In this document: piece by piece, positions 5,441 to 64,000 of the stretch
Layout: each line of letters begins with the position of its first letter
How positions within the stretch are numbered: position 1 is the first letter of the stretch
DNA from: Escherichia phage T5
DNA length: 64,000 nucleotides
Direction: 5' to 3' (one strand)
Sequence record: AY587007.1
Made by a program: the position numbers and the translations under genes
Notes under the pieces: model-generated
Told to the model about the DNA's origin: nothing
The model's input: the letters and a program-made list of their open reading frames with translations, nothing else
The model's database searches: none

Positions 5441-6145
5441 ATGGCTGGTTCTCGCAGAAAGAAACATATCCATGAAATCCCGGATGAAGTCTTTAAAAAA
5501 GTTATAGAGCATCTGGAAAACGGTGGTACTAAGAAAGCAGCATGTGAAATGCTCGGCGTATCATCCAATCCAACTATGGAAAGGATGATTGAAGAGTGGC
5601 AAGACCGCCAGATTCAAGTTGCCGAAATGAAGAAAAAGAAACGTGGTACACTCATTGAAGGTATTGAGTTGGCCAACGTTATTGAACAGTATCTATCTGG
5701 CGATTCTTTCGAAGAGATTGCCGATCGTAATTACCGCTCTGTAGCAATGGTTAAATCTGTTCTGGAACGCTATGGTGCTCTGCTTCGTTTGAACGATATT
5801 GTAGATCCATTGAATCCACCAATTATTCCTGATGATGCTGTAGCAGAAGAATTTGAGGTAGGTGAGCTTGTTTGGGTTCCTGGATACCAGTGTATTGGTG
5901 AAATCAAAAAAGCAATGGATAACCCTGTTGGTTGTTACCGTGTTTGGCTTCTATCAGAAGGCAAACAACAGAACGTTCATTATATGAATTATGAGCTGGC
6001 CTCTGTTAAACACCTGGAAAAGTTAGGGGTTGATGTAAAATCTCTGGGGTATAAATGGACTCGGGAAGAAGTCATTACGTTGATTAACGAAGCTGTTAAG
6101 GCCGCCTTGAAACTTGATAAAGAAAAAGGAAAACGCCGTGAGTAG
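5441..6145 (+). CDS. hypothetical protein, possible DNA-binding
   Basis: 234 aa directly downstream of a strong promoter and RBS; N-terminal segment GGTKKAACEMLGVSSNPTMERMI is helix-turn-helix-like. Confidence 0.5.
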   Translation: MAGSRRKKHIHEIPDEVFKKVIEHLENGGTKKAACEMLGVSSNPTMERMIEEWQDRQIQVAEMKKKKRGTLIEGIELANVIEQYLSGDSFEEIADRNYRSVAMVKSVLERYGALLRLNDIVDPLNPPIIPDDAVAEEFEVGELVWVPGYQCIGEIKKAMDNPVGCYRVWLLSEGKQQNVHYMNYELASVKHLEKLGVDVKSLGYKWTREEVITLINEAVKAALKLDKEKGKRRE

Positions 6146-6389
6146 ACTAACTGATTTACTTAAAGATGGGGAAGTAAAAACACTATATCGTAGAAGCTGG
6201 GATAACGATAATAACGGCTTAGTGTTGCTAACTTTAGATGCTGACTCGGATGTAGCTACTCAGCATACCTGGGTAGCCGGTAATTATCCATATAGCGAGG
6301 TTGTTTCATTAACAGTATGCGAAGCTATTGCAGACGATTGGGAGGTTGCCAGCATTGAGGGTATGCTCGCTGTTGGCCTGGTGGAGTAA
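6114..6389 (+). CDS. hypothetical protein
   Basis: 91-aa track ORF; likely true start is GTG at 6139 preceded by AAGGA, overlapping the end of the upstream gene. Confidence 0.35.
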   Translation: MIKKKENAVSRLTDLLKDGEVKTLYRRSWDNDNNGLVLLTLDADSDVATQHTWVAGNYPYSEVVSLTVCEAIADDWEVASIEGMLAVGLVE

Positions 6390-6406
6390 CTACTTAAAAA
6401 TTTCAG

Positions 6407-6435
6407 TTGCTTAATCCTACAATTCTTGATATAAT
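6407..6435 (+). promoter_or_regulatory. sigma70-type early promoter (TTGCTT, 17 bp, TGaTATAAT)
   Basis: TTGCTT 6407-6412, TATAAT 6430-6435; a second TGTATAAT at 6462-6469 lies just upstream of the ORF at 6493. Confidence 0.5.
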
Positions 6436-6492
6436 ATTCTCATAGTTTGAAAGAACTATTCTGTATAATTCTTAATTAAGGAAATATAAAAT

Positions 6493-6903
6493 ATGACTAC
6501 TCCAACTCAGTGGACTGATGAACTGTTCGAAAAAATGTCTTCCGAATACGTTGCTCGTATGGAGCAATTCCCAGAGGATGAACGTCCGGGTGTTAGCATG
6601 GAAATTGTTAGCGAAATTGCCCAGGAAAATGGTGTAACTCCGAACGGTTTTCGTATGAAGCTGACTAAAGCAGGTTTGTATATTAAGAAAGCTGCTGGTT
6701 CTACTTCTAAATCTAGCGCATCTACTGGAGAAAAAGCTTCCGGTGGTTCTCGTACCTCCAAAGCTCAAGCCCACGCCGACCTTCGCGCAGCATTCTCTGA
6801 TGCTGGCTTAGCACCAGATTTTCTGGATGATGCAATTATCGACAAACTGACCGGTAAAGCGGCTGCTCATCTGGCAGAAGCAATCCGAGCTATCACTAAG
6901 TAA
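6493..6903 (+). CDS. hypothetical protein, codon-optimised, putative DNA-binding
   Basis: 136 aa; strong bias to E. coli major codons (CTG, CGT, GGT, GCT) unlike neighbouring genes; motif NGFRMKLTKAGL resembles the repeats in ORF 9629-10396 and in A2. Confidence 0.55.
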   Translation: MTTPTQWTDELFEKMSSEYVARMEQFPEDERPGVSMEIVSEIAQENGVTPNGFRMKLTKAGLYIKKAAGSTSKSSASTGEKASGGSRTSKAQAHADLRAAFSDAGLAPDFLDDAIIDKLTGKAAAHLAEAIRAITK

Positions 6904-6939
6904 TTTTAGATAAATCCACCAACAAAAGGAACTATAGCT

Positions 6940-7236
6940 ATGACTAAAGCTGAAATTATTGCACAGTGCGAAAAATTGGGTGAGTTTTATCTTCATTACG
7001 AGAAACTTCGTCAGAAAGGAACCACGTACCTTCAGGGTACAATGGAATTTGATCCGGCCCAAGATAAATATCTGGCTGAGCGTATTAAACGCGAACGTAT
7101 TCGTAAAGCGAAAGATGATGAAATCCTTGTCTTCTCTCGTACTAATGATAGCTTCCGTTTTATTCCTGTCGAGAAAGTCCGTCGTGTGACTAGCCTCCAA
7201 TCAGAGTTAGATCGTGCTTCTCCAGTAGGCCGATAA
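6940..7236 (+). CDS. hypothetical protein
   Basis: 98 aa, GGA-rich RBS region, same orientation as the early operon. Confidence 0.45.
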   Translation: MTKAEIIAQCEKLGEFYLHYEKLRQKGTTYLQGTMEFDPAQDKYLAERIKRERIRKAKDDEILVFSRTNDSFRFIPVEKVRRVTSLQSELDRASPVGR

Positions 7237-7286
7237 GAAAACAATTAGCCCCTATATGGGGCTTTTGGTGTATTGGGGATATGTAA

Positions 7287-7595
7287 ATGAGCGAACAGGT
7301 AAATCAAAACTATGAAGGACACGTTGATGACCAGTCCATCATACTTGGGGAGAAGGAGGGGGAACAAGTAAGATTAACAGTATCTGAATTTCGTGGGAAT
7401 CTATACATGGGTATTCGTTACTGGCTTCTTGATATTAATGATGAATGGTTTCCAACGAAATCTGGCTTCTCTTTTCCTTACACCCTAGAAACAACATCAC
7501 AGCTTTTCTATGCGTTTACACAGATTCTTAGCGAATCTGAGGTTTTACATGAAGTACAGAAACGAGCTGAAGAACTCAAAGCCAAGAATGCCTAG
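7287..7595 (+). CDS. PC4-like single-stranded DNA-binding protein
   Basis: 102 aa; segment LTVSEFRGNLYMGIRYWLLDINDEWFPTKSGFSF matches the conserved core of the PC4/YdbC fold (F-x-G-x-x-Y-x-x-IR-x-W ... P-T-K-x-G-x-S). Confidence 0.5.
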   Translation: MSEQVNQNYEGHVDDQSIILGEKEGEQVRLTVSEFRGNLYMGIRYWLLDINDEWFPTKSGFSFPYTLETTSQLFYAFTQILSESEVLHEVQKRAEELKAKNA

Positions 7596-7612
7596 TTCTT
7601 GGCTTTTTCTTT
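7578..7612 (+). terminator. rho-independent terminator
   Basis: 11-bp perfect stem AAAGCCAAGAA / TTCTTGGCTTT with 7-nt loop, followed by a T-run; overlaps the stop of ORF 7287-7595. Confidence 0.6.
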
Positions 7613-7622
7613 ATAAATGTAT

Positions 7623-7651
7623 TTGCTTTCAACTCAGTTTTGTTATATAAT
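7623..7651 (+). promoter_or_regulatory. sigma70-type early promoter (TTGCTT, 17 bp, TATAAT)
   Basis: TTGCTT 7623-7628, TATAAT 7646-7651, then ATTTATATAAATTAATGAGAGA and ATG at 7683. Confidence 0.55.
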
Positions 7652-7682
7652 ATTTATATAAATTAATGAGAGATATAAATAA

Positions 7683-8654
7683 ATGACTAATGTAAAAGAA
7701 TTTATTAAACGCTGTCAAGAAGCATATTATCAAGGCATGTCTTTAATCTCTGATGAAGAATATGATCGCCTGGTAAAACGCTTCCCGTTAGAGGAAGAGA
7801 TCGGGCCTAAGGGTGATATTCCACATCTATATCGTATGTATTCTTTACAGAAAGTTTACTATAACCGTGGTGATAAACCACCATTCAATCCTTTAGGTCA
7901 GGTGGAAACCGATAAGTTAGATGGTTGTGCAATTTCTCTGCTATATATTAACGGCGAATTTGTTCAAGCATTAACCCGCGGTAATGGTATTCTGGGGAAT
8001 GATGTCACAAGCAACGTAAGATTGCTGAACATTCCTAAAAAGATTTCCCAAAAAGTACCTACTCAAATCACTGGTGAAGTTCTAATTACAAAAGAAGTAG
8101 AAAATAAACGTAACTTTGCCTCTGGTGCTATTAACCTCAAAGATAGCGATGATTTCGTACAACGTATCGGGGAAGGTGGTTTAATCTTCGTTGCATACGG
8201 TATCCAGTGTTCTGCTGAATCTGTAGGTATTACAGAAGCATATTTAAAAGATATGCTTTGGCTAGAGAATGAGAACTTCTTAACAGTTGTTAATGTGCGT
8301 TCCTTCTTTAAATGGATTCCGACGGACGGTAAAGTTGTTCGTATTAATGACAACCACCAATTCTTCCGTGAAGGCTGGACTAATAAATTCCCTCGTGGAG
8401 CATTCGCTATTAAAGAGGATGAAGAAGGCGAGATTACAACTCTTACTAAAGTTGAATGGCAGGTAGGGGCTTCGGGTAAAGTAACTCCAGTTGGTTATTT
8501 TGAACCGGTAATTATTGATGATGCTACAATTGTTAAAGCAACTCTTAATAACGTTGATTATATTAACTCTCTCGATCTAGAGATCGGTTGCCAGATTCGA
8601 GTGATTCGTGCTGGTGGTGTAATCCCGTGCATAGTAGAGCGAGTATACGATTAA
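7683..8654 (+). CDS. NAD-dependent DNA ligase, N-terminal part (adenylation and OB domains)
   Basis: 323 aa; adenylation motif KLDGCAISLLYINGEFVQALTRGNG (KxDG) and OB-domain end IRVIRAGGVIPCIVERV are collinear with bacterial LigA. Confidence 0.8.
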   Translation: MTNVKEFIKRCQEAYYQGMSLISDEEYDRLVKRFPLEEEIGPKGDIPHLYRMYSLQKVYYNRGDKPPFNPLGQVETDKLDGCAISLLYINGEFVQALTRGNGILGNDVTSNVRLLNIPKKISQKVPTQITGEVLITKEVENKRNFASGAINLKDSDDFVQRIGEGGLIFVAYGIQCSAESVGITEAYLKDMLWLENENFLTVVNVRSFFKWIPTDGKVVRINDNHQFFREGWTNKFPRGAFAIKEDEEGEITTLTKVEWQVGASGKVTPVGYFEPVIIDDATIVKATLNNVDYINSLDLEIGCQIRVIRAGGVIPCIVERVYD

Positions 8655-8704
8655 TACATAACCCTTTGCTACCCATCTACCATATCGGAATTATAAAGTG
8701 GTTA

Positions 8705-8733
8705 TTGACATTTTCGCCGCTTAGGTATATACT
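8705..8733 (+). promoter_or_regulatory. sigma70-type promoter (TTGACA, 17 bp, TATACT)
   Basis: Consensus -35 TTGACA 8705-8710 and -10 TATACT 8728-8733 in the gap between the two ligase ORFs. Confidence 0.45.
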
Positions 8734-8797
8734 ATTATCATTCAGTTGAGGGATAGAAAGTTATGGCGAGGGTAAGCCAAGTTAGTTAAAATTGTAG

Positions 8798-8826
8798 TTG
8801 CTAAATGCTTAAATACTTGCTATAAT
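8798..8826 (+). promoter_or_regulatory. sigma70-type early promoter (TTGCTA, 17 bp, TGcTATAAT)
   Basis: TTGCTA 8798-8803, TATAAT 8821-8826, then ATTTATATAAATTGATAAGGAAG and ATG at 8854. Confidence 0.55.
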
Positions 8827-8853
8827 ATTTATATAAATTGATAAGGAAGAAAT

Positions 8854-9636
8854 TTGATGAAAATCGAAATTCCAACACAATGTCCCTCTTGTGGTTCTAA
8901 GCTAGATCTTGTCAACGGACAATTATTCTGTCGTAATAAGTCCAACTGTCCAGCGCAATCAAGTAAGTTAATTGAGAACTTCTGTACAAAAATGAAGTTA
9001 AAGGGCTTTGGCCCGAAAACTATTGAGAAGCTGGAGCTGACGAAGATTTCAGAACTATTTTACCTAACCGAAGAAGATTTGGTTAGAGCCGTGGGTAGCA
9101 AGGTTGCCGCTAAGTTAATTAGCGAATTAAATACTAAAGTTCGCGGAGACATTGACTTTGGTTCAGTTCTCGGTTCTTTAGGAATCCCTCTAATTGGAGA
9201 GGTTGCAGCAAAGAAATTATCCCAAAATTGCACTAGCTTTCAAGATGTGAAGGCTGACGGCAAGGCTGGAGAAAACTATAAAGCCTGGCTAAATTCCCCA
9301 CAAGGCAAGGATGTAATCGAATTACCGTGGAAATTCTCAAAGGGTATTAAGGGTGCTAAAGCTGAGGTCATCATCACTGATGGTCTAGTAGCCCAGCCAA
9401 ATGGAATCACGGTGTGTATTACCGGATCTTTGCAAGATTTTGCAAATCGAACGGATGCAACAAACTATTTAGAAGGTCTAGGATATACGGTTAAGAAATC
9501 CGTTACCAAAGACGTCAAATGCCTAATCTGTGAGGATGAATCGAAGCGTTCTTCCTCATCTTATAAGAAAGCCGAAACGAATGGGATAGAAATCCTGTCG
9601 ATTAAAGAACTATTGGAGAAAAATAATAATGTCTAA
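8854..9636 (+). CDS. NAD-dependent DNA ligase, C-terminal part (Zn-finger, HhH, BRCT)
   Basis: 260 aa; Cys4 zinc finger CPSCGSKL...CRNKSNC at the N-terminus, helix-hairpin-helix-like middle, BRCT-like C-terminus ITGSL...DVKCLICED; collinear with the C-terminal half of LigA. Confidence 0.75.
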   Translation: MMKIEIPTQCPSCGSKLDLVNGQLFCRNKSNCPAQSSKLIENFCTKMKLKGFGPKTIEKLELTKISELFYLTEEDLVRAVGSKVAAKLISELNTKVRGDIDFGSVLGSLGIPLIGEVAAKKLSQNCTSFQDVKADGKAGENYKAWLNSPQGKDVIELPWKFSKGIKGAKAEVIITDGLVAQPNGITVCITGSLQDFANRTDATNYLEGLGYTVKKSVTKDVKCLICEDESKRSSSSYKKAETNGIEILSIKELLEKNNNV

Positions 9637-10396
9637 ACTGAACTGGAACGTAGAAGGTGTAACCGAGTCTCTGAAAGCAAAAGCCACTGCTCTGGGTGTT
9701 GATGTAATCTCTCAAGAACAAGTAGCTGCTATCGCTGCTGAACTGGCTGCTGAAACTGGCAAAGACGTTACCGCTCGCTCTGTTGGCTCTAAGCTGCGTA
9801 AAGAAGGTTTCGAAGTACAGAAAGCTAACGAAGTACAGAAATCCCCGTGGACTCCTGAGCAGGAAGCTGAACTGGTTGATTTCCTGAACGCTCATGCTGG
9901 TCAGTATACTTATGCTGAAATCGCTGCTGCTGTAGCTGGTGGTCAATTTGGTGCTAAGCAGGTACAGGGTAAGATCCTGAGTCTGGAAATGACAGCATCT
10001 GTTAAGCCGACCGAAAAAGCTGCCGCTGTTCGTTCCTTCACTCCGGATGAAGAAACTGACTTTGTTAATCAGGTTGTTGCTGGTGCTACTATTGAAGCTA
10101 TCGCTGCTCACTTCGGTCGCAATATTAAGCAGATCCGTGGTAAAGCTCTGAGTCTGCTTCGTGAAGGTCGTATCGCGGCTATGCCGGTACAGGAAACTTC
10201 AAGTGCTAAAACTCGTGAAGATCTGCTAGAAGGTCTGGATCTGGTTAACATGACCGTTGCTGAGATCGCTGAGAAAACTGGTAAGTCTGAGCGTGGTGTT
10301 AAATCTATGCTGTCTCGTCGTGGTCTGGTTGCTAAGGACTATGATGGTGCCGCTAAGCGTGCTAAACTGGATGCAAAAGCTGCGGCTGCTGAATAA
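9629..10396 (+). CDS. repeat-containing putative DNA-binding protein (abundant early protein, possibly D5-like)
   Basis: 255 aa; four internal repeats (e.g. TARSVGSKLRKEGFEV, GAKQVQGKILSLEM, KQIRGKALSLLREG, VKSMLSRRGLVAKD); very strong major-codon bias suggesting high expression. Confidence 0.5.
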   Translation: MSKLNWNVEGVTESLKAKATALGVDVISQEQVAAIAAELAAETGKDVTARSVGSKLRKEGFEVQKANEVQKSPWTPEQEAELVDFLNAHAGQYTYAEIAAAVAGGQFGAKQVQGKILSLEMTASVKPTEKAAAVRSFTPDEETDFVNQVVAGATIEAIAAHFGRNIKQIRGKALSLLREGRIAAMPVQETSSAKTREDLLEGLDLVNMTVAEIAEKTGKSERGVKSMLSRRGLVAKDYDGAAKRAKLDAKAAAAE

Positions 10397-58778: not shown

Positions 58779-59329
58779 ATCGTCGATTCCTTATAATATA
58801 TAAGTTTACCGCCGATAGACTTTAAGATGTACCCAATTTTTAAAGAGCGTGGCGGTAAACTTCCCGCCGTGTAGTTCGTCATTGCCGCCCTACGAGATAA
58901 ATAATAGGGGATACCCAAAAATGGCGCAACCTTATTTTTGTAAAGAAACGTAAAGAAGGCAACACGTCCGGCGCTCACCTAAGTTTAAAGGAAACGGGCG
59001 CGCGAATACCATAAAACCTAGCAGGTTGGCAAGTAATTTTTTCCTTTATATTTGCCTTGCCCTAGTTGACAAATCTTAGAAAGCTCGTGGTGACGATAAA
59101 CGGGTTATCCCCTTATGATGGGATGCCTGAAAAATTTACCGCGTCAGAAAGCGTTTTAGGCGGCTTATTTTCGATTTAACAAATATTTAACAAAAGCAAA
59201 ATTGAAAAATAGTTGGAAAAGATATTGACTTTTAAAAATCAAGACTAAACGAGTTATTTTATAAAATTAATTAATTGACAATTCCAAATTCAGCTTTTTT
59301 AGTTTCTACCCATAATAATAACTCTTGTA

Positions 59330-59714
59330 AATCATAACCTGATTTACTAACACTTTTGTTACTAGTAGGATCTTTAACTATAGCGCGCAAATAGTTTCTT
59401 CCGGTTATTATCAACTCTAGAACCATTATAATAGATATGCTTAGGCAACTTATTAGCACGGTTACGATCATTATGATCGATTGTTAGATTGCTATCAATC
59501 TCACCATTAAATAATACCCATATTATTCTATGCACTGCGTATGTTCGCCTGCTAACTTTACTCGATAGTAACCTGTGTTACTATAATGCCCTGCAATATC
59601 ACCCACCTTACTATTACCTTTCTGTACTTTCCATCTTAGAAATGATGGGGATGTTTCATCATAATAAAAGTTATCATTAGCAAGCGAATAATCTATATCT
59701 TTAAATAGACCCAT
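59330..59714 (-). pseudogene. decayed HNH-type homing endonuclease remnant
   Basis: Track ORF 59523-59714 has a homing-endonuclease-like N-terminus (ETSPSFLRWKV...GYYRVKLAGEH) and stops early; an HNH-like segment (LTIDHNDRN...RVDNNR) continues in another frame at about 59390-59520. Confidence 0.45.
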
Positions 59715-59883
59715 TGTTATAGTTTCCTTATGTTATTAATTTAATCTCTATTATATTATATCAAAACCATTAGCAAACTACCTAATGAGTTTTTCAGGTT
59801 TAATTAGCAGACTCATAATCACTTTAAAATCCTATTAGCCAACTAACTATATTTTGTTATATAATAACTGCATAAATTAGTTA

Positions 59884-60013
59884 GTGAGAAACACTATCAT
59901 TTAAGTTATCCACAGCCTTATACATTTTGTAAATTAACTTGACACAATAGGAAGGCTTTATAGCACTTTTACACAGACTTATCCACAGGTTATTCCACTG
60001 TATAAATATACAG
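59884..60013. repeat. left arm of a ~130-bp inverted repeat pair (two DnaA boxes plus an SOS-box-like palindrome)
   Basis: TTATCCACA at 59906-59914 and 59979-59987; CTGTATAAATATACAG at 59998-60013; outer and inner segments are near-exact reverse complements of 63193-63322. Confidence 0.75.
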
Positions 60014-60277
60014 GGTAAATGGAAGACATATTATAATGATGCCCAAAATAAGCGGCCTAAAACGCTTTCTAACGAGCCAAACGCTATAGGGTAATATTAA
60101 AGTAAAGCCTCACGCGTCGCCTGGTGGCTTCGCCGTGTTTTGCTCTTTACTATACCGCTGCGCGGTTAGCATAAAACTAGGCGCTAGGCAAGGAAAATAA
60201 AAAGGTAAAATAATATTTGCCTATGCTAGAAAATTACCTTTATCATTCACTCACCGATTAACGAGGGAGGCCAACAA

Positions 60278-61015
60278 ATGCGGCTATATAAACCAGATAA
60301 CGCAACCGTCTTAAAGGGCGCCTTGCGCAACCTGCTGGATGGTAGCAGGACAACCAGCATTAAACATTTTATTAACAAGGCTGAAACTATTCACCAAAAC
60401 TTTTTTAATGATTATGATGCCTATGATATGGATAGTTTTCTACCCCTATATAAGCAGGGGGCAACGATTATCTTATATAATCGTGATTGCCATATCTTTA
60501 CGGGCAGGGGAGCGGGGCCGGATACTGATTTTATTGTTGCGCAGGGTAATAATATCGTTGCGTATCATAGCAATTCAGGCCGTCAATCATTTAATATAAA
60601 TAATTTTGAGCTTGTTGGGCTTGAATTAATAAACGGACTTTCTAGCCTTGAGGGATTTTTAGATGTTATCTGGAAGTATTTATCTGCTGGATGGCATAGA
60701 CCTGATAGTGATGGATCTCAATATACGGCTGTAATGGCTTTTGATGGCGACGGTAATTTTTTATTACCATCGGAATTATATCCGTATGTATATAATGAGC
60801 TAGTACAAGAAGCGGGTTTTATTTTCTGGAAAGATGAGAATCAGATCATTGACAACACGGAAAAACATGCTGTAAATTCTAACACTCAAAGCGTTAACAC
60901 TCAAATCACTGAAAACAAAGGAAAAAATGCCATGACCAAGATCGCTAATATCGTTGCCGCTAATAAATCCGCCGTTGTAAATGCTGCAAAACTGGAAGCG
61001 GGCAAATTGCATTAA
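60278..61015 (+). CDS. hypothetical protein (first gene of the inverted-repeat-bracketed operon)
   Basis: 245 aa; GGAGG 7 nt upstream of the ATG. Confidence 0.5.
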   Translation: MRLYKPDNATVLKGALRNLLDGSRTTSIKHFINKAETIHQNFFNDYDAYDMDSFLPLYKQGATIILYNRDCHIFTGRGAGPDTDFIVAQGNNIVAYHSNSGRQSFNINNFELVGLELINGLSSLEGFLDVIWKYLSAGWHRPDSDGSQYTAVMAFDGDGNFLLPSELYPYVYNELVQEAGFIFWKDENQIIDNTEKHAVNSNTQSVNTQITENKGKNAMTKIANIVAANKSAVVNAAKLEAGKLH

Positions 61016-61053
61016 CTCAAATCACGAAAGTAGCGGCTAAAAAAGCACCATTT

Positions 61054-61287
61054 ATGATTAAAGGTTATATTGATACGCCTATTGGTCGGGTAGTTATTGC
61101 TAACCTGCTGAGCGTAGCGGTTGACCAGTACGCCCCTAGCAACCAAAAGGCGAAAGCGGTAGCGGGTGCAGCTATGGAAGCGGCTATGCTAGAAATGGTG
61201 CAAAGTTTTAACATCGCTGAAATGATTGATGAAATGGTGAAAGGTATTGATATTTCTACTTTTACCGTTAACACCGAAAGCGAGTAA
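61054..61287 (+). CDS. hypothetical protein
   Basis: 77 aa track ORF; weak RBS. Confidence 0.35.
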   Translation: MIKGYIDTPIGRVVIANLLSVAVDQYAPSNQKAKAVAGAAMEAAMLEMVQSFNIAEMIDEMVKGIDISTFTVNTESE

Positions 61288-61405
61288 TAATTAACCTAAT
61301 GTAAAGTTTTGTAAAGGTCGCCATAATCGGCGGCCTTTTTTGTTATAATGCCTTTACACCGTTTGAGGACGGTTGAAAATTTTCCCAAAATTTTGGAGGC
61401 TTAAA

Positions 61406-61636
61406 ATGGTTGCTTATTCTTCTTCTGACGCTCTTTTCACTGGAAAAGGCTGGGTATCAAATCGCTGGATCATTCAAGAAATGGTGCAGGAGTTCGGCAT
61501 TGCTAAAACTTACACTACCATTCAGGCGCTTTATGATAATGATCAAATCGATCAGCAAACGGCGGGCTTTTCGCTGGATACCCTGAAAGCGGAACACTGT
61601 ACTAAAAAACAAGCCGCCAAAATTGTTTTAATGTAA
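61406..61636 (+). CDS. hypothetical protein
   Basis: Trimmed from track ORF 61373-61636 to ATG 61406, which has GGAGG 6 nt upstream. Confidence 0.45.
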   Translation: MVAYSSSDALFTGKGWVSNRWIIQEMVQEFGIAKTYTTIQALYDNDQIDQQTAGFSLDTLKAEHCTKKQAAKIVLM

Positions 61637-61685
61637 TTAATAACGGGGCGTTACTTTCGCCCCACTAACTAGGGGAGTATTACAA

Positions 61686-61865
61686 ATGGTTATTTTTCGA
61701 GCTATTCTGGCAGGTATCTTGGGCGCTATTCTGACCCTTTTTGCTACCGCTTACGGTATTCAAGATTCTTATTGTGGTTTAGTAAATACTAAACCTATGG
61801 TTATTATTGGCGCGGGTATCGCTGTATTTTCTTATCTGCTGGGCTGCATGAATAAAGGAGAATAA
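61686..61865 (+). CDS. small hydrophobic membrane peptide (59 aa)
   Basis: Below track threshold; MVIFRAILAGILGAILTLFATAYG...MVIIGAGIAVFSYLLGCMNKGE has two hydrophobic helices; its stop region carries the RBS of the next gene. Confidence 0.4.
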   Translation: MVIFRAILAGILGAILTLFATAYGIQDSYCGLVNTKPMVIIGAGIAVFSYLLGCMNKGE

Positions 61866-61867
61866 AA

Positions 61868-62080
61868 ATGATCCGCAACGTTTCTCTTGCTCGTTCAAAG
61901 GGTTTTAAGCTGGTGGATGTTAACACATTCGAGCGGGAAGATTGTAAAATCGAATATGTAGCACGTAATAAAAACGCCTTTCGTGTTACAGAAAAGAAAT
62001 TTGATAAGCGCGGCAACGTGATAGCTGAAACGGTTAAACATTTTGCCACCTTTTACGCGGCTTTTCGTGGAGTGTTATAA
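61868..62080 (+). CDS. hypothetical protein
   Basis: 70 aa; AAAGGAG RBS upstream. Confidence 0.45.
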   Translation: MIRNVSLARSKGFKLVDVNTFEREDCKIEYVARNKNAFRVTEKKFDKRGNVIAETVKHFATFYAAFRGVL

Positions 62081-62081
62081 A

Positions 62082-62426
62082 ATGGTAATTTATGAAGGCA
62101 ATCGCTTTGTTGCTATTTGCCGACCGGGATTATTAGCAAACTACTTAAATCAGGTGTCACCTGAATATAAAGGCGTCATTAATATTTATGAGGGCAAGGC
62201 GCATTATAAGATTAATGCGGTCGTTGCCCGTGAATTAGCATTTCAATTTTTGACTTTCGCATCTTGTGATATTCAGGTCATGGGTGAAGCGTTAATTGCA
62301 GAAAATGAAGATGATTTTATTAATATCTTCCGCAAGGTATACACCGAGCGCCTGATAATGAAAGGCGCATATATTCAGTCAACTGCGGAAAGTATTGAAA
62401 CAGCTTTCAGAAAGGTGGCGCAATGA
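62082..62426 (+). CDS. hypothetical protein
   Basis: Trimmed from track ORF 62043-62426 to ATG 62082, directly after the upstream stop; GGAG 9 nt upstream. Confidence 0.45.
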   Translation: MVIYEGNRFVAICRPGLLANYLNQVSPEYKGVINIYEGKAHYKINAVVARELAFQFLTFASCDIQVMGEALIAENEDDFINIFRKVYTERLIMKGAYIQSTAESIETAFRKVAQ

Positions 62427-62518
62427 AGCTATATATTTTCGTTGGTAATGTTGAGGCTGCGAATGATTCCGCTGGTGGCGATAACGTTCGCCACTATTGG
62501 CAAAAATATATTTACTAG
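62423..62518 (+). CDS. hypothetical small peptide (31 aa)
   Basis: ATGA overlap with the upstream gene and AGGTGG RBS; weak evidence. Confidence 0.25.
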   Translation: MKLYIFVGNVEAANDSAGGDNVRHYWQKYIY

Positions 62519-62525
62519 GGTTATT

Positions 62526-62720
62526 ATGATTACACTGATTTGCGTTAAAGCCGAAGGCGACACGATAGCGCGAGAAGGGCAAAAATATAAAGCCCAAAAA
62601 GATCAATTACTCAAAACAATTGAGCGTTACAAAATACCCGATCTCAAGTATTCCGTAGTAGGACGCGATGGGATTCTAAGGGCGACACTTGAGAACGCTA
62701 TCTTTGAGATAGTCAACTAA
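62526..62720 (+). CDS. hypothetical protein
   Basis: Trimmed from track ORF 62442-62720 to ATG 62526. Confidence 0.35.
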   Translation: MITLICVKAEGDTIAREGQKYKAQKDQLLKTIERYKIPDLKYSVVGRDGILRATLENAIFEIVN

Positions 62721-62735
62721 TAACGGGGCGTTATT

Positions 62736-62939
62736 ATGAGCAATAAAATTATTGTGACCAAAACTACCACAATGGTAGACGTTTTTTATGTGCCCGATAC
62801 GCCGGAGAATCGGGGAGCGGTCGAGCGGGGCGAGTATGATAGCGTTATTTATGATGCCGATGGTTATTATCAGCATTTGGTCGATTCCTACGGGGAAGAG
62901 GAGAAGATCACGCATCGATTACCCGAGGGGGATTTATGA
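62736..62939 (+). CDS. hypothetical acidic protein
   Basis: 67 aa track ORF. Confidence 0.45.
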   Translation: MSNKIIVTKTTTMVDVFYVPDTPENRGAVERGEYDSVIYDADGYYQHLVDSYGEEEKITHRLPEGDL

Positions 62940-63049
62940 AACGATGGTTTAATCACTGGTATAAACGGTTTTTAGTACGGCATCGCAAGTCTAGACAGCA
63001 AGATGATTGGCGGGAAATGGCCAAGCGTAACAATTGCCCACTTCTCTGA
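62936..63049 (+). CDS. hypothetical small basic peptide (37 aa)
   Basis: ATGA overlap with the upstream ORF; followed directly by a terminator. Confidence 0.3.
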   Translation: MKRWFNHWYKRFLVRHRKSRQQDDWREMAKRNNCPLL

Positions 63050-63055
63050 TAACCG

Positions 63056-63078
63056 ACGGGGATCAGCTCCCCGTTTTT
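63056..63078 (+). terminator. rho-independent terminator closing the small-gene operon
   Basis: ACGGGGA-tcagc-TCCCCGT hairpin followed by TTTTT. Confidence 0.65.
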
Positions 63079-63192
63079 CACGCCTCCAGTTAAATCCCCC
63101 TTTGTTTTAGTATCCCCATCAAAATTAAACGCGTTAGAATGCGATCTAGGACGTTTTAGGCATATATTAGAATTATTCACTGCGTAGGAATA

Positions 63193-63322
63193 CTGTATAA
63201 ATATACAGTAGGATAACCTGGGGATAAGTCTGTTGATAACGCTTCAAAATGGCTAGGATTTTGTCAAGGCGAATCGTGCTGTTGATAAGTCTGTGGATAA
63301 CTTAAATAACAGTGTTTCTCAC
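63193..63322. repeat. right arm of the inverted repeat pair (DnaA boxes plus near-consensus SOS box)
   Basis: TGTGGATAA at 63292-63300; TGGGGATAA at 63219-63227; TGTTGATAA at 63231-63239 and 63280-63288; CTGTATAAATATACAG at 63193-63208 within TACTGTATAAATATACAGTA (63191-63210). Confidence 0.75.
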
Positions 63323-63327
63323 TTCCG

Positions 63328-63491
63328 TTTTTAAATACGAATCATTATCATTCGTATTCCGCTTTTTAAATGAGAATCATTCCGCTTTTTAAATGAGAAT
63401 CATTTCACTTCCTGAATAGTTCTCATTCCCTTTCTTAAATGAGAATCATTATCATTTGCATTTCACTTTTTAAATGAGATTGATTCTCATT
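63328..63491. repeat. array of five direct repeats of ~19 bp (TTTTTAAATGAGAATCATT)
   Basis: Copies begin at 63328, 63363, 63386, 63431 and 63467 with spacings of 23-45 bp; two copies extend into palindromes. Confidence 0.75.
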
Positions 63492-63543
63492 ATCATTCGC
63501 ATTCAGGCGAGCAGGCAATTGCCCTGCGCTTTTGTGCAAATCC

Positions 63544-63766
63544 GACATTTGCCCCCATGGATTACGCGTGGGCGTGTATGTGCAAATCCGACAATTTTTG
63601 GTAGTGTGCGAATCCGACCCGAAAAATTTTTATAGTGTGCAAATCCGACAATGAATTTTCCCAAAAACTCCAGCAATCACGAACTGCGTTCGAATCCTGT
63701 GGAATTAGCTAGAGTATGTGCAAATCCGACATGTGTTGAGATGTGCGAATCCGACAAGATTTTTGT
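63544..63766. repeat. array of six to seven direct repeats of 14 bp (GTGC[A/G]AATCCGAC[A/C])
   Basis: Copies at 63544-63557, 63590-63603, 63616-63629, 63647-63660, 63728-63741 and 63753-63766, plus a degenerate copy near 63689-63700; all in the same orientation. Confidence 0.75.
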
Positions 63767-63769
63767 GAC

Positions 63770-63960
63770 TTCGATGGGAGGGTGTGTGATTGTATGGGTT
63801 TGAGGGGAAGATGAGAGAGCGAGAGAAATTTGGGAGGCTAGAAGGATATGGGCGCAGGATTGGTGCGGAGCACCTGATTTGCGGGGATTTTGGGGAAGAG
63901 TTGAGATAATTTGGGAAGATTTGAGATAGGTGCAGAAAAAGTAAAATTTTATTAGCTAAA
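63770..63960. other. purine-rich, cytosine-poor tract with short TTTGGGA(A/G)G / TTTGAGATA repeats
   Basis: Plus strand is almost entirely G/A/T over ~190 bp; the minus-strand track ORF here is a low-complexity artefact. Confidence 0.5.
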
Positions 63961-64000
63961 GGGGGCAAAATAGCTTGACAAGTGAAAATTTCTGTGGATC

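Follow-up and report, generated by a model that had tools for sequence, protein, structure and literature searches.

Injection of phage T5 DNA stops at 8% and then restarts. The mechanism is a problem more than 50 years old, and the repeats considered here are the strongest candidates for a signal acting in cis. The locus analysed lies in a stretch of 64,000 nucleotides from Escherichia phage T5 (sequence record AY587007.1; hereafter the window), where positions 59884–63322 comprise two inverted-repeat arms that carry DnaA boxes and bracket a small operon, genes T5.011 to T5.017. What are the arms for, and what ties them to the genes between them? The arm pair proved to be a published T5 feature, already known, and nothing in its structure differs from the published account. 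As to function, we judge it about evenly balanced that the arms are landing pads for host proteins, with pre-existing DnaA, and possibly LexA, helping to halt injection.

In a megablast comparison with phage records, positions 59700–64000 matched Escherichia phage T5 (AY543070, NC_005859 and AY692264) with 99.8% identity over 100% of the query. The match fell at left-terminal-repeat coordinates 5915–10216, with a second place in each of the three T5 records. Since this segment matches the T5 terminal repeat, the right end of the window is the right end of the T5 genome. The arms and the cassette between them lie in the right copy of the terminal repeat, that is, in the first-step-transfer (FST) or pre-early region; a preliminary description of this DNA, made from the sequence alone, had placed them there, and the T5 match and the GenBank records bear this out. 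Relative to AY543070 the segment differs by substitution at four bases and by one base in length at four places, and three bases are added where the window ends; both arms are 100% identical to that record.

The arms had been described as reverse complements of each other in their outer and inner parts, and on recomputation they do align as inverted repeats. A repeat search returned an outer inverted pair (59883–59921 and 63285–63323; 39 nt, 92% complementary) and an inner one (59973–60013 and 63193–63233; 41 nt, 88%). Aligned whole, the arms share 74% identity over 130–134 nt (blastn E value 1.5e-14), and the longest exact identity between them is 17 bp. The spacer between the outer and inner parts has diverged, yet CTTGACAnAAT is common to both arms. 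The two arms are as follows:

59884–60013: left arm, IRC-spacer-IRD (AY543070 6099–6228; AY587007 6022–6152), in Repeat Region 2, between hegG and T5.011
63193–63322: right arm, IRD'-spacer-IRC' (AY543070 about 9411–9540; AY587007 9332–9462), at the left edge of Repeat Region 3

These are the elements that Davison (bioRxiv 10.1101/866236, "Phage T5 two-step injection") describes as IRC-spacer-IRD and IRD'-spacer-IRC', 131 bp each. The correspondence (Davison 2020) extends to the genome, the positions, the length, the inversion, the paired boxes, the constant spacer and the conservation among T5-like phages. According to that preprint, the DnaA boxes were first seen in 1987. Of 25 T5-like phages nearly all have eight, the two boxes of a pair standing 3 bp apart, and T5 itself has lost the eighth. 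The spacer has a constant length of 52 bp; the coding region enclosed by the repeats shows little conservation and varies greatly in length. The earlier view that the structure is unexplained by annotation does not hold: exactly this structure has been published, and in GenBank the right arm falls within the feature "injection stop signal (iss)". Prior annotation with known function, which had been named as grounds for abandoning that view, is largely in place, in that the structure is published while its function stands in the literature as a hypothesis. To the published account the present comparison would add a LexA-like palindrome at the inner end of each arm, inversion of the cassette as a block, the position of the left arm within a published deletion, and a rigid layout common to 27 arm copies.

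DnaA boxes are concentrated in the arms. The strict pattern TTWTNCACA occurs eight times in the 64 kb, four of these within the 260 bp of the arms, and the three perfect copies of TTATCCACA in the window all lie in the arms. With one mismatch or fewer to TTATCCACA, six of 24 matches are in the arms, against about 0.08 expected. Predicted boxes start at 59906, 59967 and 59979 in the left arm, all on the plus strand, and at 63219, 63231, 63280 and 63292 in the right arm, all on the minus strand. They form two head-to-tail pairs per arm, 12 bp from start to start with a gap of 3 bp, one left-arm box being degenerate; T5 carries seven of the eight, in agreement with the published count. The preliminary description was right that boxes are present in each arm, but its two per arm is an undercount, the actual number being two pairs.

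59906–59914, plus strand: DnaA box TTATCCACA (perfect), left-arm outer pair
59918–59926: degenerate partner box TTATACATT, left-arm outer pair
59967–59987, plus strand: inner box pair TTTTACACA and TTATCCACA, 12 bp start to start, left arm
63219–63239, minus strand: inner DnaA-type box pair TTATCCCCA and TTATCAACA, 12 bp start to start, right arm
63280–63300, minus strand: outer box pair TTATCAACA and TTATCCACA (perfect), right arm

In their consensus 9-mers (TTATCCACA/TTWTNCACA) of defined orientation and spacing, the arms resemble the DnaA-box clusters of the E. coli chromosome (the R boxes of oriC, datA, DARS). They differ from these in the head-to-tail pairing at 12 bp, in having no identified adjacent unwinding element, and in that the module is present twice, in inverted orientation, on phage DNA which does not replicate during that stage. 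Seven or eight clustered boxes, several of them perfect R1/R4-type 9-mers, are what one might expect of a replication origin, or of a DnaA sink that, like datA, would switch off initiation in the host. The cellular DnaA pool, however, is not expected to be titrated by eight sites on a single entering molecule. The T5 origins lie near the middle of the genome, the replication genes are silent during first-step transfer, and host DNA is destroyed within minutes anyway (Davison preprint). We regard an origin or sink as very remote.

The box geometry is strongly conserved. A match to the right arm is present in 533 phage records and covers at least 80% of it in 527, with typically two places per record, or four when both terminal repeats are included. 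T5 and 13 further loci, representing 14 phages of at least four genera (Tequintavirus, Epseptimavirus, an unclassified Markadamsvirinae phage, Sugarlandvirus and Myunavirus), gave 27 arm copies that were aligned. In these copies the boxes start at arm positions 29, 41, 90 and 102, TTGAC at 62 and the inner palindrome at 121, and the box sequences vary only among DnaA-compatible variants. Among the nine other Markadamsvirinae loci, six have right arms that are 88–95% identical to that of T5, and in UTK0009 and KKP_3711 the figure is about 77%; the T5 left arm is 74–83% identical to the left arms of these loci. The separation of the arms, meanwhile, is between 1.85 and 4.26 kb, and the genes found there differ from phage to phage. 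Conservation of the arms while distance and gene content vary argues for selection on the arms themselves. The location in the arms of all three perfect DnaA boxes and of the only near-consensus LexA box of the window speaks for landing of host proteins.

As a separate observation, the outer half of the spacer (59918–59938 and 63269–63288) occurs in two versions across the phages, TTATACATTTTGTAAATTA and TTATCAACAGCACGATTTG. The former is found in the left arm of T5 and in the right arm of UTK0009, KKP_3711, the Sugarlandvirus phages and My1; others have the latter on both arms. This distribution suggests exchange or conversion between arms.

The second conserved element of the arms is a palindrome resembling the binding site of LexA:

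59996–60015, no strand: LexA-box-like palindrome cACTGTATAAATATACAGgg with 16-bp core CTGTATAAATATACAG, inner end of the left arm
63191–63210, no strand: LexA-box-like TACTGTATAAATATACAGTA, inner end of the right arm, one mismatch from the 20-bp E. coli consensus

The right-arm palindrome shares the identical 16-bp core CTGTATAAATATACAG with the left arm. Measured against the 20-bp E. coli LexA consensus TACTGTATATATATACAGTA (PMC5101192, PMC13203515), TACTGTATAAATATACAGTA is the sole site in the 64 kb with three mismatches or fewer, where 0.01 would be expected. The half-site pattern CTGT-N8-ACAG has five matches in the 64 kb against 0.82 expected, and such cores are present in both arms. The exact pattern is kept at its fixed position in 21 of the 27 arm copies of the 14 phages, whose hosts are Escherichia, Salmonella, Klebsiella, Enterobacter and Pectobacterium. 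In IMG/VR, the composite of GGTTATYCT and the box was found only in contigs of 96–123 kb, the size of T5; where both arms of a contig match it, the left copy is on the plus strand and the right copy on the minus strand, 1.8–4.1 kb apart. The two central bases (60005–60006 and 63200–63201; arm positions 128–129) are AA or TT, with no intermediates in the 27 copies. This choice was tried as a marker of inversion history and rejected, as it follows neither arm side nor cassette orientation and no simple scheme fits.

Like the LexA operators of E. coli SOS genes, colicin operons and temperate-phage switches, the T5 palindromes are near-consensus over 20 bp and have CTGT-N8-ACAG cores. Unlike them, they occur in a virulent phage, do not clearly overlie a strong promoter and are embedded in a DnaA-box module, LexA binding being a prediction. 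The Davison preprint (bioRxiv 10.1101/866236) names such palindromes palC and palD, and its text contains neither "LexA" nor "SOS". We found no link between LexA and the T5 repeats in the literature covered, which did not include Heusterspreute 1987, Wang 2005 and Davison 2015, so that an earlier mention of the LexA-like box, or of the inversion described below, is possible. A tentative extension, which we think on the whole doubtful, is that the arms are more than clusters of DnaA boxes: functional LexA sites would put the host SOS repressor into the nucleoprotein complex on FST DNA, and the repeats would in addition have served as inversion breakpoints. If this were true, LexA occupancy might contribute to the halt or to the silencing of inward promoters, and cleavage of LexA following A1-driven breakdown of host DNA might help to time release.

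The same conservation could reflect binding of a phage protein, the A2 dimer or an A1/A2 complex, with the arms serving restart, cleavage or circularisation and the likeness to DnaA and LexA sites being incidental. In its favour, conservation extends over the whole palindrome of 16–20 bp, central bases dispensable for LexA among them, and over TTGACA and a 24-bp outer block (AGTGAGAAACACT..TTTAAG). However, the boxes vary exactly within the DnaA-compatible variants, and the variants of the palindrome, CTGG and CCAG, are of the kind seen in genuine E. coli LexA (SOS) boxes. A one-mismatch fit to the 20-bp LexA consensus would be a very unlikely accident. A2 is a DNA-binding dimer (Davison preprint), but no recognition sequence is known for it. 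On this evidence A2 or A1/A2 binding is unlikely to be what the arms are for.

The right arm is non-coding and repeat-rich and lies just left of the 7.9–8% halt. The estimated shear point (about 63480) is some 160 bp further on and the major 7.9% nick (63529/63530) some 210 bp, whereas the left arm, 3.3 kb away, does not fit the halt. The right arm is followed by the remainder of the iss repeats, a region that also contains the shear point and the nick:

63316–63763: rest of the iss repeat region, with DRE (67 nt, two copies), DRC (ATTCCGCTTTTTAAATGAGAATC, 23 nt, five copies) and DRD (TGTGCAAATCCGAC, six copies)

The DRC unit ATTCCGCTTTTTAAATGAGAATC is related, in inverted orientation, to the outermost 21 nt of the arms. 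Davison proposes that membrane-associated DnaA on the boxes stops injection, with both repeats taking part, and that A1/A2 then cut the DNA and transfer restarts. The preliminary description had guessed at injection control, and for the arms this agrees with Davison's, the sole published hypothesis. The halt takes place without phage protein synthesis (Davison preprint), and so calls for host or cis factors; because of this, it would be pre-existing host proteins that load on the right arm.

The identity with the published structure, the sequence conservation, the dispensability and the inversion are shown, and the arms are conserved non-coding modules dense in consensus sites for two abundant DNA-binding proteins of the host. 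Binding of these proteins and the link to the injection stop we infer, following Davison, as follows. Each arm would be a landing pad of fixed geometry, its DnaA boxes arranged as two head-to-tail pairs on either side of an invariant TTGACA, with a LexA-type palindrome at the inner end. As the DNA enters, proteins already in the cell would load onto the right arm, DnaA being the prime candidate and LexA a possible one, and the loaded proteins would help to hold the DNA until A1/A2 act. The right arm forms the left edge of the annotated injection stop signal, about 160–210 bp short of where entry of the first 8% of the genome halts. The left arm, which is dispensable, would be an accessory copy, a second anchor; this would fit an additional FST band that an old report placed near 5.8 kb, in the vicinity of the left arm (via the Davison preprint).

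Several points weigh against this reading. The first is that the pair is not needed. Annor et al. 2026 obtained viable phage deleted from hegG to 017, and their junction primers, mapped on the window, place the deletion at about 59254–62942, so that the operon is lost together with the entire left arm while the right arm is retained. Because this deletion is viable, the arm pair is not required for viability. Escherichia phage JLBYU43 is a natural single-arm variant: it retains the right arm, and no left arm was found in the corresponding 620-bp intergenic region (2301–2920 of its locus, L011), which has neither DnaA box nor palindrome. In the Sugarlandvirus phages and My1 the left arm is without its outer part. 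The neighbouring DRE, DRC and DRD repeats are equally good candidates for the stop signal, and it is not obvious how protein on DNA that has already entered would stop what remains in the tail. Growth of T5 on recA hosts is generally reported, which counts against any required cleavage of LexA for second-step transfer. Finally, a 2023 paper on phage BF23 notes that functional studies of these sites are lacking, and a PNAS paper of 2026 still describes the mechanism as poorly understood. The dispensability of the left arm directs attention to the right arm and, together with the rigid geometry and the LexA-like box, makes the question easier to test.

Could the arms instead control transcription? 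Both spacers contain an inward-pointing TTGACA, and the operon has its own promoter and terminators:

59939–59944, plus strand: TTGACA, left-arm spacer, inward, position invariant among the arm copies of the 14 phages
63267–63262, minus strand: TTGACA, right-arm spacer, inward
60194–60272, plus strand: annotated rightward pre-early operon promoter, upstream of T5.011 (AY543070 6411–6489)
61313–61338, plus strand: internal rho-independent terminator after T5.011 (−16.4 kcal/mol, z −4.7), annotated in GenBank
63055–63080, plus strand: operon-closing rho-independent terminator, hairpin 63055–63075 followed by U5 (−12.9 kcal/mol; AY543070 9275–9296)

The inward TTGACA elements noted in the preliminary description are present and conserved, but they are not predicted promoters. 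A sigma-70 scan reported no promoter starting at either arm TTGACA, and neither is followed by a −10 element; as standard promoters they were rejected, since candidate −10 elements occur at a spacer of 13–15 bp or 20 bp. The promoter upstream of 011 has been characterised experimentally (Annor et al. 2026). It lies at about 60194–60272 and is not the arm TTGACA, and the scan found promoter-like hexamers around it at 60185–60246. The terminator proposed earlier at 63056–63078 folds as a hairpin and agrees with the GenBank terminator.

Bound DnaA and LexA might nevertheless repress weak inward promoters or block RNA polymerase, keeping cassette transcription out of the iss and uninjected DNA, or tying cassette expression to the state of the host. 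Inward hexamers do overlap the LexA-like boxes of both arms (plus strand 60007–60034, TATACA-16-TATTAT; minus strand 63199–63172, TATACA-16-AATAAT), and the AATAAT/AATAAC element is kept in Markadamsvirinae right arms. They are weak, however, with nine of 12 matches, and the 21 such matches in the region are little above the 14.1 of shuffled sequences. The invariance of the spacer TTGACA and the location of the arms just outside the operon promoter and terminator would also suit a control element or insulator. Against this, TTGACA has no −10 element after it, about 200 bp separate the arm from the characterised 011 promoter further inside, an inward promoter in the right arm would be antisense to the operon with no credible open reading frame (ORF), and the operon and the left arm are dispensable. 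We consider such a control function distinctly unlikely. Structured RNA in the region was also sought and rejected, an Rfam scan of 59500–64000 giving one sub-threshold match: STnc320, a Salmonella sRNA, at 61304–61356 on the minus strand (27 bits against a gathering score of 50; E 0.05). This match overlaps the terminator after T5.011 and is probably due to chance.

Comparison of the relatives revealed a further property of the locus. In three Sugarlandvirus phages and Pectobacterium phage My1 the cassette is inverted as a block relative to T5, with both flanks collinear:

L009 2348–6134; L013 985–4874; L014 2275–6134; L015 7824–11914: inverted cassettes in the loci of the three Sugarlandvirus phages and My1, compared with 59884–63322 of the window

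In these loci the left flank keeps the 007 homologue (and A2 where detected) in T5 order and strand, and the right flank keeps the DRE repeats and, in Sugarlandvirus, the DRD repeats and the 018 homologue. Between the arms, the homologues of 011, of the 495-nt ORF and of 015 or 017 are on the opposite strand in reversed order. The left arm of Sugarlandvirus then carries an inner flank of the Markadamsvirinae right-arm type, and the other arm vice versa; such a swap of the inner flanks is what would result from an inversion with its breakpoints in the arms. All ten Markadamsvirinae loci share the T5 orientation. Given this uniformity and the 17-bp longest identity between the arms, inversion is a rare evolutionary event rather than a switch. 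The inverted repeats would have allowed the cassette to invert as a block during the evolution of the family, and in this way they also shape the evolution of the accessory pre-early gene set.

The T5 cassette shares with the Mu G and P1 C segments, Salmonella Hin, the yeast 2-micron plasmid and the herpesvirus isomers a block between inverted repeats that is found both ways round among relatives. Unlike such segments, it has no invertase or recombinase gene, its repeats are short and diverged, and its orientation is fixed within subfamilies. Searches of the eight cassette ORFs against Pfam and PHROGs found no transposase, invertase or recombinase family, in keeping with the earlier statement that no transposase is present. 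Arm homologues were absent from 20,395 E. coli records and 72,556 plasmids; among phages and viral contigs the arms always lie at the same locus of T5-like genomes. Of the features of a transposon or invertible segment, terminal inverted repeats are present, and a recombinase and differing genomic contexts are not. A mobile element was rejected, as there is no arm homologue in E. coli genomes or plasmids and no recombinase domain.

That the repeats are mainly recombination substrates, bounding an exchangeable or invertible accessory cassette of a mobile or flip-flop kind, appears quite improbable. Great variation in gene content between the arms, the whole-cassette inversion with collinear flanks in four relatives, and the swapped L-type and R-type inner flanks expected of breakpoints in the arms all speak for it. 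On the other side are the lack of a recombinase or transposase in or adjoining the cassette, the confinement of the arms to one locus of T5-like phages, an identity between the arms that is poor for homologous recombination, the rarity of inversion indicated by the uniform Markadamsvirinae loci, and retention of the right arm in phages without a left arm. It would also leave the conserved DnaA and LexA geometry unexplained.

Weaker inverted homology runs about 75 bp inward from the arms (60014–60090 and 63116–63192) and includes a −10-like element and the motif CCTAAAACGC...TTCTAACG, which in the left flank is listed as a repeat:

60045–60081, no strand: IRB'-type repeat CCTAAAACGC...TTCTAACG; Repeat Region 2 contains IRB' (Davison)

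An inverted copy of it lies at 59135–59171, across the HNH gene hegG (37 nt, 86%), and a related motif is within the right-arm flank. hegG itself is outside the arms and is rare in relatives.

The genes between the arms would be functionally untied to them, forming a plastic, dispensable pre-early cassette for host takeover. The ORFs are:

60278–61287, plus strand: T5.011, 336 aa in the reference, DUF7566, "37 kD pre-early protein", toxic to E. coli
61406–61636, plus strand: T5.012, 76 aa, no assigned function
61686–61865, plus strand: T5.013, 59 aa, two transmembrane helices, toxic, compromises cell integrity
61868–62080, plus strand: T5.014, 70 aa, labelled Ung-dependent nickase in RefSeq/PHROGs
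62082–62426, plus strand: T5.015, 114 aa, toxic, Ung-dependent nickase of abasic (AP) sites (Mahata 2021, Annor 2026)
62463–62720, plus strand: T5.016, 85 aa, no assigned function, rare in relatives
62736–62939, plus strand: T5.017, 67 aa, no assigned function
62936–63049, plus strand: 37-codon ORF without annotation that overlaps the T5.017 stop; conservation in JLBYU43 86%

The operon is compact and runs from promoter to terminator, as previously described, but it contains seven annotated genes and one possible 37-codon ORF rather than about ten genes. The two-helix membrane peptide reported in it is T5.013. Pfam and PHROG searches of the eight ORFs gave DUF7566 for T5.011; the rest belong to PHROG families of unknown function or had no match. 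Mahata et al. 2021 found 011 and 015 to be toxic and 015 to nick abasic sites made by host Ung, and toxicity of 011, 013 and 015 was reported by Annor et al. 2026. An anti-defence role, suggested earlier for the operon, is not what is known of it: the literature documents host take-over, toxicity (011, 013, 015), the 015 nickase and dispensability. The cassette is an accessory, dispensable host-takeover module.

Two details concern the annotation of these genes. The A-run at 61003 is one base shorter than in AY543070 (GGGCAAATTG against GGGCAAAATTG), which splits T5.011 into ORFs of 245 and 77 aa in the window; this may be a sequencing or a strain difference. PHROG 4227 and RefSeq assign "endonuclease nicking abasic sites generated by host Ung" to the 70-aa T5.014, whereas the cloning primers used by Annor et al. 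for the nickase gene map to the 114-aa ORF T5.015. The T5.014 label is probably an off-by-one annotation transfer, the activity belonging to T5.015.

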